Part shown: positions 1,289 to 54,036 of the stretch, piece after piece
Layout: each line of letters begins with the position of its first letter
How positions within the stretch are numbered: position 1 is the stretch's first letter
Assembly: GCA_036406675.1 (NCBI GenBank)
Contig: DASXAO010000138.1
Span: forward strand, 6,851 to 70,850
Reading direction: 5' to 3'
From: Burkholderiales bacterium
Lineage (GTDB): Bacteria; Pseudomonadota; Gammaproteobacteria; Burkholderiales; SG8-39
Length of the DNA: 64,000 bases
The notes under the pieces: generated by a model
What the model was told of the DNA's origin: nothing
What the model saw: the letters and a program-made list of their open reading frames with translations, nothing else
Databases searched by the model: none
Program-made: the position numbers and the translations under genes

Positions 1289-2140
1289 ATGATCGAAGGC
1301 GCGAAGTGGAAGAAGTGGCTCTGGTTCTACCTGCCGCTGGGCGCGTTCATCTTCGGCCTGCTGTTCCCGTTCTACTGGATGGCGGTGACCACCATGCGGC
1401 CCGACGGCGAGCTCTACCGGCCGTGGAACCACCCGCTCTACTCGCCGTTCTGGACCGCCCACCCGACCTTCGACCACATCAAGAACCTGGTGCAGGAGAC
1501 GCTGTTCAACCAGTGGATGTGGAACACCATGCTGATCTCGCTCGCGGCGACGCTCATCTCGCTGGTGTGCGGCGTGTTCGCGGGCTACGCGCTGGCGCGG
1601 CTCAAGTTCCGCTACGCCGGGCTGCTCGGCACCGCGATCTTCGTCACCTACCTGGTGCCGCAGACGCTGCTGTTCATCCCGCTCGCCGACATCATCCGCG
1701 AGTACCGCCTCGGCGACACGCCCTGGGCGCTGATCCTCACCTATCCGACCTTCCTCATCCCGTTCTGCACCTGGCTGATGATGGGCTACTTCAAGACCAT
1801 CCCGAAGGAGCTCGAGGAATGCGCGCGCATCGACGGCGCGGCGCGCTGGCAGGCGATGATCTACATCATCTTCCCGATCGCGGTGCCGGGCATCCTCTCC
1901 GCCGGCATCTTCGCCTTCACGCTGTCGTGGAACGAGTTCATCTACGCCCTGGTGTTCCTTTCCTCCCCGGAGCAGAAGACCGTCCCCGTCGGCGTGGTGT
2001 CGGAGCTGATCCGGGGCGACGTGTTCTTCTGGGGGCCGCTGATGGCGGGCGCGCTGATCGGCTCGATCCCGGTGGCGATCGTCTATTCCTTCTTCGTCGA
2101 GTACTACGTCACCGGCATGACCGGCAGCGTCAAAGGCTGA
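1289..2140 (+). CDS. carbohydrate ABC transporter permease (MalG/UgpE-like)
   Basis: 283 aa ORF with an EAA loop (LEECARIDGAARWQAMIYIIFPIAVPG). It lies between the first permease and the ATPase gene. Confidence 0.85.
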   Translation: MIEGAKWKKWLWFYLPLGAFIFGLLFPFYWMAVTTMRPDGELYRPWNHPLYSPFWTAHPTFDHIKNLVQETLFNQWMWNTMLISLAATLISLVCGVFAGYALARLKFRYAGLLGTAIFVTYLVPQTLLFIPLADIIREYRLGDTPWALILTYPTFLIPFCTWLMMGYFKTIPKELEECARIDGAARWQAMIYIIFPIAVPGILSAGIFAFTLSWNEFIYALVFLSSPEQKTVPVGVVSELIRGDVFFWGPLMAGALIGSIPVAIVYSFFVEYYVTGMTGSVKG

Positions 2141-2152
2141 ATGCGGGGTTGA

Positions 2153-3216
<1,064 letters not shown>

Positions 3217-3220
<4 letters not shown>

Positions 3221-4053
3221 GCTTCCGCTATCCGATCGCCGATGCCCACATGCACGTGTGGGATCCGCACGCGCATTACTACCCGTGGCTGTGCGACGAG
3301 CGGCCGATCCCGTTCCGCTACGGCGACTACGGCAAGCTCCGACGCCGCTACCTGGTCGACGACTACCGCGCCGACACCGCCGGCTGGCGGGTGTCGCACG
3401 CGGTCTACATCGAGGCCGAGTGGGATCCGCGCGATCCGCGCGGCGAGATGGATTTCCTGGAAAGAATCAGGAAGGCGAGCTCGTTTCCGACCGTCGCCGT
3501 CGCACAAGCGTGGCTCGACCGGGAAGACTGCGCCGAGGTGCTCGAAGCGCACACGCGGCACGGCTTCGTGCGCGGCGTGCGCCACAAGCCTCGGCCCGGG
3601 ATGATGGACGATGCCCGCTGGCGCGCAGGCTTCGCGCGCCTCGCCCGGCTCGGCCTGCACTTCGAGCTGCAGGCGCCGTTCCCGCAGCTCGGGGAGGCTG
3701 CGCGCCTGGCGCGCGATTTCCCCGATACCACGATCGTGCTGAACCACGCCGGGCTGCCTTCCGCCAGCGGCGCGCGCGAATGGCGCTCGGCGATGGCCGG
3801 GCTCGCCGCCTGCTCCAACGTCGCGGTGAAGATTTCGGGCATGGGGGTCCCGGTGCGGGAATTCGTGCTCGGGGTGCTCGAGCTGTTCGGCGTCGAGAGG
3901 ACGATGTTCGCGAGCAACTACCCGGTGGACAGCCTGCGCGCCAGCTTCACGACGATCTACGCCGGCTTCGAGGAGATCACCCGCGGCATGGCCGAGGCAG
4001 AGCGCCGCGCGCTCTTCTACGACAACGCGCTGCGCATCTACAGGATGAGGTGA
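3217..4053 (+). CDS. amidohydrolase-2 family protein (COG3618-like sugar lactonase candidate)
   Basis: This is the 3' part of the 1111..4053 frame. The sequence IADAHMHVWDP...NHAG...FASNYPVD is typical of metal-dependent amidohydrolase-2 lactonases. The first ATG (3250) lies inside the HxH metal motif, so a non-ATG start upstream (CTG 3217) is suspected. The start is uncertain. Confidence 0.72.
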
Positions 4054-4056
4054 GCC

Positions 4057-4923
4057 ATGGAAGCAAAACCTTTCAAGCTCGGTTACGTCGGGGTCGGCCT
4101 GATGGGCCTGCCGATGGTGCAGCGCCTCGCCGGGCTCGGCTGGCGCGTGCGAGCCTACGACATCGTGCCGGAGCGCGTGGCTCAATCCGGAGCGCAGGCG
4201 TGTGCGTCGGCCGCCGGCGTCGCGTCCGAGGCGGACGTCGTCTTGCTCAACCTTCCGACCAACGATGCGGTCATCGATGCCATGTTCAGCCCGCGCGGCG
4301 CCGTGAAGACGCTGCGTCCGCCGCAGCTCGTGGTCGACTTCTCCACCATTCCGGTCGAGGCCTGCCGCGCCCATGCCGCGCGCCTCGAAACGGAAACCGG
4401 CTGCCGCTGGGTCGACGCCCCGGTGTCGGGCGGCCCGCCCGCGTCGGGCGCCGGGACGCTGACCGTCATGGCGGGCGGCACGGAGGCAGACATTGCGCGG
4501 CTCGCGCCGCTCATGCGCGACATCGCCGGCCGCTGCACCCGCGTCGGCCCCGTCGGCGCCGGGCTCGCCGCCAAGATGATCAACCAGCTCGTCGTCGGCG
4601 TCGGCCACGCCATGCTCGCCGAGGCGGTGGCGCTGTGCGAGAAGGCCGGCATCGACGCGGCGCGCATCCCCGATTGCCTCGCCGGCGGCTACGCCGACAG
4701 CAACCTGATGCAAGCCTACTGGCCGCGGATGGCGCAGCGCGACTTCGCGCCGCGCGGCTACGTGCGCCAGCTTCTGAAAGACCTCGAGATGGTGGCGAAA
4801 TGGGGCGGCGCGCTCGAGGCCACCACGCCCATGCTCACCCAGGCGCTGTTCCTCTATCGCGAGCTCGCGAAGCGCGGCCACGCCGAGCTCGACAGCTCGG
4901 CCATCCGCAAGCTCTACGACTAA
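4057..4923 (+). CDS. NAD(P)-dependent oxidoreductase, 3-hydroxyisobutyrate/6-phosphogluconate dehydrogenase family
   Basis: 288 aa with an N-terminal Rossmann motif (GYVGVGLMGLPM). GAGG sits upstream of the ATG, which is 3 nt after the upstream stop. Confidence 0.8.
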   Translation: MEAKPFKLGYVGVGLMGLPMVQRLAGLGWRVRAYDIVPERVAQSGAQACASAAGVASEADVVLLNLPTNDAVIDAMFSPRGAVKTLRPPQLVVDFSTIPVEACRAHAARLETETGCRWVDAPVSGGPPASGAGTLTVMAGGTEADIARLAPLMRDIAGRCTRVGPVGAGLAAKMINQLVVGVGHAMLAEAVALCEKAGIDAARIPDCLAGGYADSNLMQAYWPRMAQRDFAPRGYVRQLLKDLEMVAKWGGALEATTPMLTQALFLYRELAKRGHAELDSSAIRKLYD

Positions 4924-27458: not shown

Positions 27459-28799
27459 TCAAGCCGCGGCGGGGATAACCTCGCGCAGCGTTTGGAACAA
27501 CCGATCGATCTGCGGCTTCTCGACGATGAGGGGCGGGGAGAGCGCGATGATGTCGCCGGTCACCCGGATTAGAACCCCCGACTCGAAAGCTTTCACGAAC
27601 GCCTCGTGGGCGCGCCGGCCGGGCGCCTCGGCCCGGGGCTCGAGCTCGACCGCCGCAACCAGGCCGCAGTTGCGGACGTCGATCACGTGCCGCGTGCCCT
27701 TGAGCGAATGCGCCGCGTCCTCCCAGTACTTCTCGAGCGACTGGGCGCGAGTGAGGAGGCTCTCTTCCGCGTACGTTTCGAGCGTGCCGATGCCCGCAGC
27801 GCAGGCGAGCGGATGGCCCGAATAGGTGTAGCCGTGGAAGAGCTCGATGCTCGACAAGGAAGATTCGGGCCCCTGCATGAAGGCCTCGTACAGCGACTCC
27901 TTGAGGAACACGGCGCCCATCGGCACCGTGCCGTTGGTCAGGCCCTTCGCCGTGGTGAAGAGGTCCGGCATGACGCCGAAGCGCTGCGAAGCGAAGGGAT
28001 GGCCCAGGCGTCCGAACCCGGTGATCACCTCATCGAAAATGAGCAGGATGCCGTGCCGCGTGCAGATCTCCCGCAGGCGCTCGAGATAGCCTTTCGGCGG
28101 CACCAGCACGCCGGCCGATCCGGCCACGGGCTCGACGATCACCGCCGCGATCGTCGAAGGATCATGCAGCACGCAGAGCCGTTCCAGCTCGTCTGCGAAC
28201 TCCGCACCCCTTTCCGGTTGCCCCTTGGAGAACGCATTTCGCTCGAGGTCGTGCGTGTGGCGGATATGGTCTACGCCCGCGACGCCGGGGCCGAACGTCT
28301 TCTTGTTTGCCGGCAGCCCGCCGACCGCCATGCCGCCGAAATTCACGCCGTGATAGCCGCGCTCGCGGCCGATCAGACGGAAGCGCTGGCCTTCGCCGCG
28401 CGCGCGGTGGTACGCGAGCGCGATCTTGAGCGCGGTGTCGACCGATTCCGAGCCGGAGTTGGTGAAAAACACGCGCGAGAAGCCCTCGGGCGCGATGCGC
28501 GCGAGCCTCTCGGCGAATTCGAACACCATCGGGTGGCCCATCTGGAACGTGGGCGCGAAGTCCATCGTCGCGACCTGGCGCTTGACCGCTTCGACGATCT
28601 TCGGCCGGCAATGTCCGGCGTTGACGCACCAGAGCCCCGCCGTGCCGTCGAGCACCTGGCGCCCTTCGGGCGTCCAGTAATACATGCCCTCGGCGCGCGC
28701 AAGCAGCCGCGGCGCCTTCTTGAATTGGCGATTCGCAGTGAACGGCATCCAGAACGCCGACTGCTCGAGGTCCGAACCGAATTCCGCGCGCTTGTTCAT
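27459..28799 (-). CDS. class III (omega) aminotransferase, beta-alanine/pyruvate transaminase-like
   Basis: 446 aa with the PLP-lysine context DLFTTAKGLTNG and an overall aspartate aminotransferase fold type I class III pattern. Confidence 0.88.
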   Translation of the reverse strand: MNKRAEFGSDLEQSAFWMPFTANRQFKKAPRLLARAEGMYYWTPEGRQVLDGTAGLWCVNAGHCRPKIVEAVKRQVATMDFAPTFQMGHPMVFEFAERLARIAPEGFSRVFFTNSGSESVDTALKIALAYHRARGEGQRFRLIGRERGYHGVNFGGMAVGGLPANKKTFGPGVAGVDHIRHTHDLERNAFSKGQPERGAEFADELERLCVLHDPSTIAAVIVEPVAGSAGVLVPPKGYLERLREICTRHGILLIFDEVITGFGRLGHPFASQRFGVMPDLFTTAKGLTNGTVPMGAVFLKESLYEAFMQGPESSLSSIELFHGYTYSGHPLACAAGIGTLETYAEESLLTRAQSLEKYWEDAAHSLKGTRHVIDVRNCGLVAAVELEPRAEAPGRRAHEAFVKAFESGVLIRVTGDIIALSPPLIVEKPQIDRLFQTLREVIPAAA

Positions 28800-28830
28800 G
28801 AGGACACATTACACCGCAGTGCGGTGCACT

Positions 28831-28922
28831 AAAAAGGGGTCAGAGGAATTTTCCTGTAACACACACGCGGCGCGCATACGTGCGCGTGCAAGTGTTACAG
28901 GAAAATTCCTCTGACCCCTTTT
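28831..28922. repeat. family-1 palindromic element, copy 1 (31-bp perfect inverted arms)
   Basis: Left arm 28832-28862 (AAAAGGGGTCAGAGGAATTTTCCTGTAACAC) is the exact reverse complement of right arm 28892-28922. A GC-rich 29-nt spacer with its own CACGCG/CGCGTG pairing separates them. A second copy lies at 52345-52437. Confidence 0.85.
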
Positions 28923-29769
28923 ATCCCTGGTAGGCGACGACGCGCTGCTTCTGCACGCCCAGGTGCTGGATGCTGAGCGTCATGACGTCGCCCGCCTTGA
29001 GAAACACCGGCGTCGGCTTGATGCCCAGGCCCACGCCCGGCGGCGTGCCGGTGGCGATGATGTCGCCGGGCAGCAGCGTCATGTACTGGCTCACGTGCGC
29101 GATGATTTTCGCCACGCCGAAGATCATGGTGCGCGTGTTGCCGGTCTGCATGCGCTGGCCGTTCACCTCGAGCGACATGTCGAGGCTCTGCGGGTCGGGA
29201 ACCTCGTCGGTGGTGACGAGCCAGGGGCCGATCGGGCCGGCGGTGTCGAAGCCCTTGCCCTTGTCCCACTGGCTGGTGGCCATCTGGAACGAGCGCTCCG
29301 AGACGTCGTTGACGATGCAGTAGCCGGCGACGTGGCTGAGCGCCTCGGCCTCGCTCACATACTTCGCGGTGGTGCCGATGACCACGCCGAGCTCCACTTC
29401 CCAGTCGAGCTTGGTCGAGCCCCGGGGCTGGATCACGTCGTCGCTCGGCCCGCTGATGCAGGTGGTCGCCTTCATGAACACGATCGGCTCAGAAGGGATC
29501 GGCATGCCGGCTTCTTTGGCATGGTCGGAATAGTTGAGGCCGATCGCGACAAACTTGCCGATGCCGACGTAGGGCACGCCGAAGCGCGGGGTGGCGTTCA
29601 CGAGCGGCAGCGTTTCCGGCTTGAGGCGCGACAGGGTCTTCAGCTGGCGCGGCGAGATCTCGTTCGGGCCGATGTTGTCGATCACCTTGGAGAGGTCGCG
29701 CAGGCGGCCTTCGCCGTCGATCACGCCCGGCTTCTCGTAGCCAGGCTTGCCATACCGGCACAGCTTCAT
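28921..29769 (-). CDS. fumarylacetoacetate hydrolase (FAH) family protein
   Basis: 282 aa with typical FAH-family sequence (GLNYSDHAKE...VELGVVIG...NDVSERS...GTPPGVG). ATGA overlap with the upstream SDR gene. Confidence 0.88.
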   Translation of the reverse strand: MKLCRYGKPGYEKPGVIDGEGRLRDLSKVIDNIGPNEISPRQLKTLSRLKPETLPLVNATPRFGVPYVGIGKFVAIGLNYSDHAKEAGMPIPSEPIVFMKATTCISGPSDDVIQPRGSTKLDWEVELGVVIGTTAKYVSEAEALSHVAGYCIVNDVSERSFQMATSQWDKGKGFDTAGPIGPWLVTTDEVPDPQSLDMSLEVNGQRMQTGNTRTMIFGVAKIIAHVSQYMTLLPGDIIATGTPPGVGLGIKPTPVFLKAGDVMTLSIQHLGVQKQRVVAYQG

Positions 29770-37840: not shown

Positions 37841-38113
37841 ATGGCGAGGACAGTGAAGTGCGTGAAGCTGGGCCGGGAAGCCGAGGGTCTGGAGCACCCC
37901 CCCTACCCCGGCGCGCTGGGCAAGCGCATCTGGGAGAACGTCTCCAGGGAAGCCTGGCAGCAGTGGCTCAAGCACCAGACCATGCTGGTGAACGAGAACC
38001 GGCTCAACCTCGCCGATCCCAAGGCGCGCAAGTACCTGATGGAGCAGACCGAGCGGCATTTCTTCGGCGAGGGCGCCGAGGTCGCTTCGGGTTACGTGCC
38101 GCCGGAAAAATAG
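37841..38113 (+). CDS. yggX: Fe(2+)-trafficking / oxidative damage protection protein
   Basis: 90 aa. [52 protein letters not shown] aligns closely with E. coli YggX as I remember it. Confidence 0.85.
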
Positions 38114-38131
38114 GGACAGTCCCTATTTTCC
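38104..38131. repeat. family-2 palindrome, copy A (GGAAAAATAGGGACAGTCCCTATTTTCC)
   Basis: 11-bp perfect arms around a central A. The yggX TAG stop (38111-38113) lies inside the left arm. Confidence 0.7.
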
Positions 38132-38148
38132 GTTAGCTATGCGTCGCT

Positions 38149-38176
38149 GGAAAATAGGGACTGTCCCTGTTTTTCC
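38149..38176. repeat. family-2 palindrome, copy B (GGAAAATAGGGACTGTCCCTGTTTTTCC), inverted relative to copy A
   Basis: This imperfect copy (one A-to-G change and an extra T) lies 17 nt from copy A and 8 nt from the phoU stop. It is likely the phoU-side terminator. Confidence 0.65.
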
Positions 38177-51579: not shown

Positions 51580-52347
51580 TTGCGCGTCGCGACCTGGAAC
51601 GTCAATTCGCTGAAGGTGCGCCTGCCGCACCTCGTCGACTGGCTCGCACGGGAAAAGCCGGACGTCGCCTGCCTGCAGGAGACGAAGATCGAGGACGCGA
51701 ACTTCCCCGTCGCCGAGGTGCGCGCCGCCGGCTACGAAGCGGTGTACTGCGGCCAGAAGGCCTACAACGGCGTGGCGATCCTCGCGCGAACCCCGCCGGC
51801 CGCCGTGCAGCACGGCATCCCCGATTTCGCCGACGACCCAAAGCGCGTGATCGCCGCGACCGTCGGCGAAGTGCGGATCGTGTGCCTGTACGCGCCCAAC
51901 GGGCAGGCGCCGGGATCGGACAAGTACGAGTACAAGCTGCGCTGGTACGACGCTCTCGCCACCTGGCTGCAAGGGGAAGCGGAACGGCATCCAAGCCTGG
52001 CCGTTCTAGGCGATCTGAACGTCGCACCGGAAGACCGCGACGTGCACGACCCGAAGCGCTGGGCAGGACAGATCCACGTTTCGGACCCCGAGCGCGCGGC
52101 GATGCGCCGCGTGGTCGACGAAGTCGGGCTGGCGGACGCTTTCCGGCTTTTCCCGCAGCCGCCGGGCGAATTCTCGTGGTGGGACTACCGCCTCGCCGCG
52201 TTCCAGCGCAACTGGGGCCTGCGCATCGATCACATCCTGCTTTCGCCGGAGCTCGCGAAGCGCTGCCGTGCCTGCTTCGTCGACAAGTCACCCCGAAAGC
52301 TCGAGCGGCCGTCGGATCACGCTCCGGTCATCGCGGAGCTGCAGTAA
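51580..52347 (+). CDS. xth: exodeoxyribonuclease III
   Basis: 255 aa with an apparent TTG start. [17 protein letters not shown]...CLQETK...SDHAPV is typical of the ExoIII/Xth family. Confidence 0.88.
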
Positions 52348-52437
52348 AAAGGGGTCAGAGGAATTTTTCTGTAACACTTTCCGCGCCGCATGCGCGCGCG
52401 CCGGGTGTTACAGAAAAATTCCTCTGACCCCTTTTTA
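52345..52437. repeat. family-1 palindromic element, copy 2 (33-bp perfect inverted arms)
   Basis: Left arm 52345-52377 (TAAAAAGGGGTCAGAGGAATTTTTCTGTAACAC) is the exact reverse complement of right arm 52405-52437. The spacer is 27 nt and GC-rich and contains CGCATGCG. The outermost triplets are the TAA stops of xth (+) and aceB (-). Confidence 0.88.
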
Positions 52438-54036
52438 GTCGATCAACTGATACGCCGGCAAGGTGAGGAACTCAACGTAGTGGTCGTCGACGGTGATGCG
52501 CTCGAAGAGCTGGGCGGCTTCGTCGTACCTGCCTTCGCTCATTGCGGCCTTCACCTTGGCGAGCTCCTCCTTTAGAAGGGCGCGGAAAAGCTCGACCGTG
52601 ACCTTCCTGCCGTCGTCGAGCACGCCCTTGGGCGAGCGGATCCACTGCCAGATCTGAGAGCGCGAGATCTCGGCGGTGGCGGCGTCCTCCATCAGGTTGA
52701 ACACCGGCACGCAGCCGTTGCCCACGAGCCAGGCGCCGAGATACTGGATCCCGACCGAGATGTTGTTGCGCAGCCCCGCCTCGGTGATCGGCTTGTCGGG
52801 CTGGAACGCGAGCAGATCCCGCGCCGAGACGCTCACGTCCGGCCGCTGCCGCGTGTACTGGTTGGGCTGCGGCATGTGCTTGTCGAACACTTCCTTGGCG
52901 ATCGGCACGAGCGCGGGATGCGCGACCCAGGTGCCGTCGCAGCCGTCGGTCACCTCGCGCAGCTTGTCCTGGCGCACCTTGTCGAGCGCGGCCTCGTTCG
53001 CCTTCGGGTCGTTCTTGATCGGGATCTGCGCGGCCATGCCGCCCATCGCCGGCGCGCCGCGCCGGTGGCAGGTCTTCACGAGGAGCAGGGCGTAGGCGCG
53101 CATGAAGGGCGCCGTCATGGTCACCTGGGCGCGGTCAGCGAGGCAGAAATCGCGGTCGGCGCGGAATTTCTTGATGCACGAGAAGATGTAGTCCCAGCGG
53201 CCGATGTTGAGGCCCGAGGAATGCTCGCGCAGCTCATAGAGGAACTCGTCCATCTCGAACGCGGCGACCACGGTCTCGATCAGCGCGGTGGCGCGGATCG
53301 TCCCGACGGGGATCCCGAGCTCCTGCTGCGCAAGCACGAAAATCTCGTTCCACAGGCGCGCCTCGAGGTGCGACTCCATCTTCGGCAGATAGAAGTAAGG
53401 GCCCGAGCCGCGCGCGAGCAGCTCTTTCGCGTTGTGGAAAAAGTAGAGCGCGAAGTCGAAGATGCCGCCGGACACGGGCTGGCCGTCGACCGTGACGTGC
53501 TTTTCATCGAGGTGCCAGCCGCGCGGCCGCGGGATGAGAACCGCGGTCTTCTCTTTCAGGTGATAAACCCTCTGGGTACTGTCAGCTGCGGTGCTTTCGA
53601 AGCTGATCGTGCGCCGCACGGCGTCGCGCAGGTTGATCTGCCCGTCCACCATGTTGTGCCAGGTCGGGCAGTTGGCGTCCTCGAAGTCCGCCATGAACGT
53701 CGAGGCGCCGCTGTTCAGGGCATTGATCACCATCTTTCGGTCGGTCGGCCCGGTGATCTCGACGCGCCGGTCCAGAAGATCCTTCGGCTGCGCAGCAACC
53801 TGCCATTCGGAATCGCGGATGTGTTTCGTTTCCACGAAAAAGTCCGGCTTGACGCCTGTGTCGAACATCGCTTGCCGCTCGGCGCGACGCGCGAGCAACT
53901 CCTGGCGGCGGGATTCGAAGCGCCGGTGGAGCTTGGCTACGAAGGCGAGCGCTTCGGGCGTGAGGATCTGCGCGAACTCGGGAGTGATGCGTCCGGAGAT
54001 CGAAACGTCTTTGGGCAGCGGACTCGACATGTGCAT
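52435..54036 (-). CDS. aceB: malate synthase A
   Basis: 533 aa. Sequence such as [21 protein letters not shown]...FMADFEDA is typical of malate synthase A. An alternative ATG lies at 54030. Confidence 0.9.

Follow-up and report, generated by a model that had tools for sequence, protein, structure and literature searches.

Two copies of a long palindrome lie in the 64,000 nt of DNA from a Burkholderiales bacterium analysed here (the window), and they raise the question of what kind of element carries such long arms and sits so tightly on the ends of genes. Copy 1 has perfect arms of 31 nt each (28832-28862 and 28892-28922; 100% complementary) separated by 29 nt. The perfect arms of copy 2 are 33 nt each (52345-52377 and 52405-52437), 27 nt lie between them, and they reach 42 nt if 90% complementarity is allowed (Table 1). 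The 27-mer GGGGTCAGAGGAATTTTYCTGTAACAC has four exact matches in the window, these being both arms of both copies, and none in 100 shuffles; a hidden Markov model (HMM) of the arm, run over the window, finds four arms only, all from copies 1 and 2. For both copies the predicted RNA fold energy of either strand lies between about -69 and -71 kcal/mol (z-scores between -13 and -14), and the DNA fold of copy 1, calculated for the plus strand only, is -45 kcal/mol.

The sole difference between the arms of the two copies is a C in copy 1 that is a T in copy 2. It is matched on the opposite arm by G and A, respectively, and each copy is a perfect palindrome, as the earlier note on this DNA had described. 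That note had also stated that the spacers differ almost completely, and this statement has to be withdrawn: the two centres align with a global score of 10 when one of them is reverse-complemented, against 2 in the same orientation, and a score of 10 was matched by 1 of 2000 shuffles. As the centres are homologous only after this inversion, copies 1 and 2 lie in opposite polarity. Their gene contexts are also of two kinds. Both xthA, on the plus strand, and the malate synthase gene, on the minus strand, end in copy 2, which is therefore in a convergent context; the aminotransferase gene starts just past copy 1 and places this copy in a tandem one.

Table 1. Coordinates of the palindromic elements and adjoining genes in the window, and of RAYT genes with their flanking arms in related loci
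Feature	Coordinates	Strand	Remarks
Copy 1, left arm	28831..28862	+	A5 run 28831-28835, then 27-nt arm GGGGTCAGAGGAATTTTCCTGTAACAC; arm HMM 45.5 bits
Copy 1, centre (variable, GC-rich, 29 nt)	28863..28891	+	folds as apical stem-loop with unpaired shoulders
Copy 1, right arm and T4 run	28892..28922	+	TAA stop of FAA-hydrolase gene (28921-28923, minus strand) overlaps T run
Copy 2, left arm	52345..52377	+	T, A5 and 27-nt arm, T variant at arm position 18; xthA TAA (52345-52347) inside
Copy 2, centre (variable, GC-rich, 27 nt)	52378..52404	-	homologous to copy 1 centre, opposite orientation
Copy 2, right arm, T5 and A	52405..52437	+	malate synthase TAA (52435-52437, minus strand) inside
FAA_hydrolase-family gene, ends in copy 1	28921..29769	-	Pfam PF01557, E 1.5e-72
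Class-III aminotransferase gene	27459..28799	-	Pfam PF00202; start 31 nt beyond copy 1
Exodeoxyribonuclease III gene (xthA), ends in copy 2	51580..52347	+	Pfam PF03372
Malate synthase gene, ends in copy 2	52435..54036	-	Pfam PF01274/PF20659/PF20656
RAYT gene, L179	1267-1971		arms 1190-1222 and 1949-1980
RAYT gene, L180	3001-3705		arms 2925-2957 and 3683-3715
RAYT gene, L182	835-1539		arms 776-808 and 1517-1549

The window holds a second palindromic doublet family, at 38104-38176, which reads GGAAAAATAGGGACAGTCCCTATTTTCC, then 17 nt, then its near reverse complement. Each of its units is itself a hairpin, like a classical REP, and the doublet lies between convergent ORFs with a TAG stop inside the first unit. 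Its DNA fold is -30 kcal/mol (z -10), and the motif occurs in 0 of 182 loci from the other genomes and metagenomes.

Outside the window, a scan of 185,579 species genomes with the 17-mer GGGGTCAGAGGAATTTT found the family of copies 1 and 2 only in the MAG Burkholderiales SMAG_U13179 (DATLUZ01, six loci) and at two more distant betaproteobacterial loci, the remaining matches being single chance matches. The same scan of JGI metagenomes gave at least 120 loci, many of them family members from soils. Grouping by flanks leaves, among the matches listed, at least 42 distinct doublet loci with unrelated flanks from one MAG and soil metagenomes (individual loci are cited by L number). Doublets predominate, as a search for single arms found 42 doublet loci against about nine with solo or truncated arms among the matches listed. 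The consensus reads G-A5-GGGGTCAGAGGAATTTTCCTGTAACAC, a variable GC-rich centre and the mirror arm GTGTTACAGGAAAATTCCTCTGACCCC-T5-C; from GGGG to CCCC its length is 67, 70-72 or 80-83 nt, and there are also shortened versions that measure 34 and 45 nt. There was no match to the element in the plasmid collection and no occurrence of the arm sequence in a full-text literature search, and viral contigs gave two single-arm matches to the 17-mer with the partner arm absent within reach.

The copy number is two in the 64-kb window and at least six in the MAG DATLUZ01. With four arms in the window and, by the arm HMM, no second copy in 357 kb of family loci, the density of the element is probably low, in the order of tens per genome, a figure made uncertain by assemblies that break inside the element. 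Contigs start or stop there in L043 (1576-1602) and at the ends of L044, L059, L064, L068, L076, L104, L116, L119, L155 and L162, and the exact xthA protein is found only on a 1.6-kb contig broken inside the element. Because short-read contigs so often end in this way, the copy counts in MAGs are underestimates. The scan is in addition blind to members made purely of the GAGCAATT/AATTGCTC arm subfamily, so the family is larger than sampled; this subfamily is seen in L182 (776-808 and 1517-1549) and as single arms in L029, L066, L093, L099 and L114.

Several loci show partial or related structures. Part of the arm end is duplicated beside a full element in L017 (5795-5835), where CTCTGACCC(C)TTTTGTTTTCACG occurs twice, and in L048 (236-260), where AAAAAGGGGTCAGAGG stands ahead of the full element. 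In L037/L129/L162 and in L081/L133 (e.g. L037 696-730) the right half is missing: a solo left arm runs straight into the 3' end of a converging ORF, whose TAA stop is provided by TTGTAAC of the arm. Contigs with flanks unrelated to the family (L074/L092, L158 and L087/L123) likewise have tandem GGGGTCAGAGTAAAG units or GGGGTCAGAGGA...TCCTCTGACCCC hairpins that are short, and the motif of the outer stem recurs outside the family.

The larger set of copies allows the stem to be examined by covariation, as the earlier note had proposed. Forty-three distinct sequences were aligned without gaps, taking from each side 8 flank nt, the 27-nt arm and 6 nt of the centre. Of all cells, 94% are paired; 61 are changed on both sides, against 22.3 +/- 3.7 in shuffles, and the covariation score is 0.108, against 0.046 in shuffles. 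Neither the score nor the double-change count was reached in any of 500 shuffles, and every slid control was far lower. The search had fixed the 17 outermost nt in one arm, which leaves only the inner ten pairs free of bias, and four of these ten covary: positions 18 (CG 34, UA 5), 20 (UA 32, CG 2, unpaired 8), 23 (AU 34, UA 9) and 27 (CG 33, AU 9). There are seven fully paired haplotypes. Paired changes are far above chance, yet unpaired changes are frequent too: the arms are perfect in 24 of the 43 sequences, and the other 19 carry at least one unpaired difference, which the earlier note had named as the mark against structural selection. Unpaired arm cells number 27 of 1161, half of them of the transversion type.

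The view of that note that structure is what counts, rather than primary sequence, is contradicted. The stem is kept by paired changes, but the arm sequence is strongly conserved as well. It is nearly invariant over the 42 loci (among the matches listed), and at orthologous sites the arms are about 100% identical although the coding flanks are only 77-95% identical. One position behaves differently. Arm position 20 (alignment columns 28/55) is hypervariable, with T changed to G or C on one arm only in loci that have different centres (L007, L049, L121, L136, L071, L108 and L118), and it may be a mutational hot spot or mark exchange between subfamilies.

These patterns bear directly on the proposal that a gene for a structured non-coding RNA, or a site of RNase III processing, accounts for the element, which would then be selected as RNA. 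A very stable RNA hairpin on both strands and a covarying stem would suit such a role, but the palindrome is perfect at the DNA level, on both strands, and only 5 G-U pairs are present within the 27 arm positions, against 22 non-standard cells. Changes of the transversion type account for half of the unpaired cells. The centre also inverts, both between orthologous loci and between the window copies, and no Rfam family matches at the gathering score, an E-value search giving only sub-threshold hairpins of eukaryotic miRNAs. Selection as RNA is consequently a most improbable explanation of the family.

The genomic positions of the copies are uniform. All lie at gene 3' ends, the location being extragenic save for a few ORFs that read into an arm. 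Of 29 loci in which both flanks could be assessed, 18 are convergent, 11 tandem and none divergent among the matches listed; the gene calls behind these counts come from a GC3 heuristic and contain some errors. The stop of the converging ORF lies 0-11 nt from GGGG in 36 of 47 cases. The earlier note had advised counting copies, their orientation and their distance to stops, and the outcome is 42 loci among the matches listed, at 3' ends only and with stops that usually abut the A/T runs. A GGGG/CCCC stem base with A5 upstream and T5 downstream, placed on stop codons, would suit bidirectional termination. Judged by this anatomy, the element could plausibly serve as a bidirectional transcription terminator or 3'-end stabiliser, either as a by-product or through co-option. 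A simple terminator scanner leaves the elements unreported, but it allows stems of at most 20 pairs and loops of at most 8 nt and cannot represent the stem of the element, which is longer than 20 pairs and interrupted.

Could termination be the whole story? The family would then consist of immobile, host-evolved bidirectional intrinsic terminators, whose similarity would be due solely to gene conversion between them or to selection for termination. The location of the A5/T5 tracts and the G-rich stem base directly on stop codons, the excess of convergent loci just given, the persistence of copies at orthologous sites across species and the 34-nt short form at the copy 1 site (L006, L106), which resembles a plain terminator, all agree with it. 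However, termination needs a structure and not a fixed 33-nt sequence in 42 unrelated loci, the xthA site is occupied in some genomes and empty in others, and arms of the family bracket a transposase gene in four loci of relatives, as described below; the silence of the terminator scan also counts against this reading, if weakly given the stem and loop limits of the scanner. A family of terminators and nothing else is therefore improbable.

Comparison of orthologous sites shows what varies around the element. Two independent relatives (L165 and L169-171; xthA 87% identical) have an empty xthA/malate-synthase site, in which the stops of the two genes overlap in GACTAGTCGAT, the convergent genes sharing 4 nt (L165, L169/L170). 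In L164 a 15-nt spacer stands at this site. A luciferase-like monooxygenase gene lies between xthA and malate synthase in L166-L168 and L172-L176 (about 3249-4247 or 3749-4747) and overlaps the end of xthA by 20 nt. The intergenic site is variable within the clade, and excision or a deletion by slippage would account for the empty site equally well. Neighbouring genes can overlap where the element is missing, and stops that abut it tightly may therefore be explained simply by its insertion between two stops of a compact genome.

At the copy 1 site, L006 and L106 have a 34-nt short palindrome. The first of these loci, from DATLUZ01, is syntenic with the window at 22.9-30.5 kb (88-95% identity). 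When its positions 1615-3568 are set beside 28800-28925 of the window, the short palindrome is seen to consist of the outer arms only and to be accompanied by three extra minus-strand genes that the window lacks: DUF350, GSP_synth (glutathionylspermidine synthase-like) and a small ORF without a Pfam hit. A gene-block indel thus borders the element. Elsewhere the centre is the part that changes. It has been replaced between arms that are nearly identical, within flanks that are 77-95% identical, in L007 versus L109, L047 versus L127 and L072 versus L113, and it is inverted at the orthologous site in L065 versus L136. On a finer scale, L005 versus L075 and L017 versus L154 have 800 identical flank bases and one base that differs inside the 84-92 nt element; such single-base strain differences may stem from a raised mutation rate of the palindrome or from consensus noise in metagenome assembly.

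The empty site suggests at first sight a MITE moved by a DDE transposase, for instance of the IS630/Tc1 type with a TA target, the arms being its terminal inverted repeats. The empty sequence GAC-TA-GTCGAT compared with CAG-TA[AAAAGGGG...CCCCTTTT]TA-GTCGAT at copy 2 resembles a TA duplication, but the TA dinucleotides at copy 2 come from the abutting TAA/TAG stop codons. Across the family, whichever boundary offset is taken, a flanking direct repeat of 2-5 nt is seen in at most 3 of 38 loci, and the TA-duplicating MITE was dropped after this test. The lack of a target-site duplication is expected for Y1 transposition, and the gene found between family arms encodes a Y1 and not a DDE transposase. 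Movement by a DDE enzyme is thus extremely unlikely. Palindromic flanks beyond the A run, considered as a sign of a foldback mechanism, are explained by the stop codons abutting both sides. GGGG inverted repeats of the Tn3 family were set aside for the missing 5-bp duplication and the Y1 transposase partner, and integron attC sites because there are no extrahelical bases, GTTAC is at the inner and not the outer end, and the element adjoins genes of core metabolism.

The most telling evidence comes from the gene between the arms. The earlier note had advised looking for a RAYT, and a Y1 transposase of 234 aa, flanked by family arms, is indeed present in relatives. When every family locus was scanned for motifs, a single ORF proved to contain HVHLL and YIELNPVRAGLV. 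It is in L107, where it lies 45 nt downstream of a solo left arm and is cut by the end of the contig; its full-length homologues are 234 aa long and carry the JGI name REP-associated tyrosine transposase. Against Pfam Y1_Tnp (PF01797) these proteins score 52-57 bits (cutoff 23; E 1e-13 to 1e-15). The sole NCBIfam hit is REP_Tyr_transpos at 72-77 bits (E ~1e-20), just under the equivalog cutoff of 80, no other NCBIfam model reaching E <= 1e-5, and a PDB sequence search with the RAYT gave no hit.

In L179, L180/L181 and L182 the gene stands between two single family arms that are inverted relative to each other; L107 retains the left arm only. Between the left arm and the ATG there are 27-44 nt. 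The right arm encodes the last eight codons of the RAYT (KSVTEKFL) together with its TGA stop, which is part of TCTGACC of the arm. Synteny around the gene is conserved in L107, L179, L180 and L181. L182 comes from a different MAG and has a different neighbourhood, and its RAYT is 67% identical to the 234-aa RAYT P0125 (tblastn); the paired variant GAGCAATT/AATTGCTC is found in the two arms of this locus, which differ only at arm position 27. The flanking arms in L179 and L180/L181 have several mismatches and pair less well than the arms of a typical doublet. No RAYT was found within the 64-kb window by motif scan or tblastn, and what connects the window to the RAYT is the identity of its arms with those of related organisms.

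The centres of the doublets also point to the RAYT unit. In the 80-83 nt types they have the same asymmetric shoulders as this unit, ACA-ATTGC... beside the left arm and ...CCAAAA beside GTGTTAC, which suggests that the centres arose by internal deletion of the RAYT gene. Copy 1 appears to have plus polarity relative to the RAYT unit, going by the ...GCAA shoulder beside GTGTTAC.

The elements of the window are very likely REPINs, non-autonomous partners of a RAYT that consist of two inverted, REP-like arms of 33 nt and a short variable centre. As defined in the literature, a REP/RAYT system combines a RAYT that has an inverted repeat on either side with REPINs, which are dispersed inverted doublets of this repeat that form hairpins (PMC2817692, PMC3116915). 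The assignment is based on this definition, as the arms of the family flank a RAYT in relatives and also occur as dispersed inverted hairpin doublets. RAYT genes are always flanked by two inverted REPs (PMC2817692), and REPINs are hairpin-forming REP doublets in which compensatory changes are common (PMC3116915). The element, which the earlier note could not assign to a named family, thus has its place among REPs and REPINs with a cognate RAYT. Classical REPs are individually palindromic, if imperfectly so, and have GT(A/G)G as their head (Nunvar et al. 2010, PMC2817692). The single arm is not palindromic (DNA dG -1.4 kcal/mol, z 0.5; 132 of 200 shuffles fold as well) and contains neither GTAG nor GTGG, so it falls outside this classical definition. 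What has been found is a new family of a well-known kind and not a new kind of element.

The nearest known systems are those of Pseudomonas fluorescens SBW25 (GI-GIII) and of E. coli (REP/BIME with yafM). In common with the present family they have an inverted doublet with a less conserved spacer that folds as a hairpin, an extragenic location, compensatory stem changes, no target-site duplication, a RAYT bracketed by two inverted repeats of which the downstream one lies at or in the gene end, and copies that persist at orthologous sites (PMC3116915, PMC2817692, PMC5581495). The family differs from them in a single arm that is not a hairpin and lacks the GT(A/G)G head, in arms of 33 nt that are AT-rich and usually perfectly paired, and in A5/T5 ends that make the doublet terminator-like. 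Its copy number is apparently in the tens rather than the hundreds, and its host is an uncultured soil Burkholderiales and not a gammaproteobacterium.

Other repeats share some of these features. IS200/IS605 elements and their palindrome-associated derivatives (PATEs) have a Y1 HUH transposase (PF01797), no target-site duplication and short gene-less derivatives. Their ends are separate subterminal hairpins, not long terminal inverted repeats, and the protein described here matches the NCBIfam RAYT model. Correia/NEMIS, ERIC and other MITE-like repeats are short, palindromic and dispersed, lie in transcribed intergenic regions and can affect termination or mRNA stability. These repeats have target duplications, DDE partners or no known partner, whereas the present family has a Y1 transposase as its partner and shows no duplication. 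Pairs of DNA uptake sequences (DUS) in Neisseria and TRIT in Mycobacterium tuberculosis are sequence-conserved intrinsic terminators. Like the family they are repeated, conserved hairpins directly after stops, often between convergent genes. The family lacks an abundant solo motif of the uptake type, and in relatives a transposase gene lies between its arms; as the window has four arms only and no solo copies, pairs of uptake sequences were rejected.

How the doublets would spread can be outlined from the published REPIN/RAYT and IS200/IS605 model. The RAYT would act as an HUH Y1 enzyme related to the TnpA of IS200/IS605. The doublet would fold as a hairpin in single-stranded DNA and the RAYT would cut and rejoin it, copying or moving the doublet in the process. 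Only variants that keep both the hairpin and the recognised arm sequence would go on spreading, which would give rise to paired changes common to several loci, and resident copies would later gain private unpaired changes and remodel their centres. A more speculative idea, which we regard as rather unlikely, is that this RAYT recognises the long doublet hairpin of two non-palindromic arms instead of a small REP hairpin, and that the doublet has perhaps also been co-opted as the lineage's standard bidirectional terminator between overlapping convergent stops. If this were true, host and replicator would share one structure.

The current picture of REPINs is unchanged by these findings, and a practical effect of the elements is that they break short-read assemblies. 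A long palindrome that had no explanation would now be tied to a defined mechanism, and a REPIN/RAYT pair from an uncultured soil lineage of betaproteobacteria is very probably added to those known. With its non-palindromic arms, its terminator-like design and the stop codon of the RAYT inside the right arm, this pair would be useful for understanding how RAYTs recognise their substrates and how such elements coexist with compact genomes.
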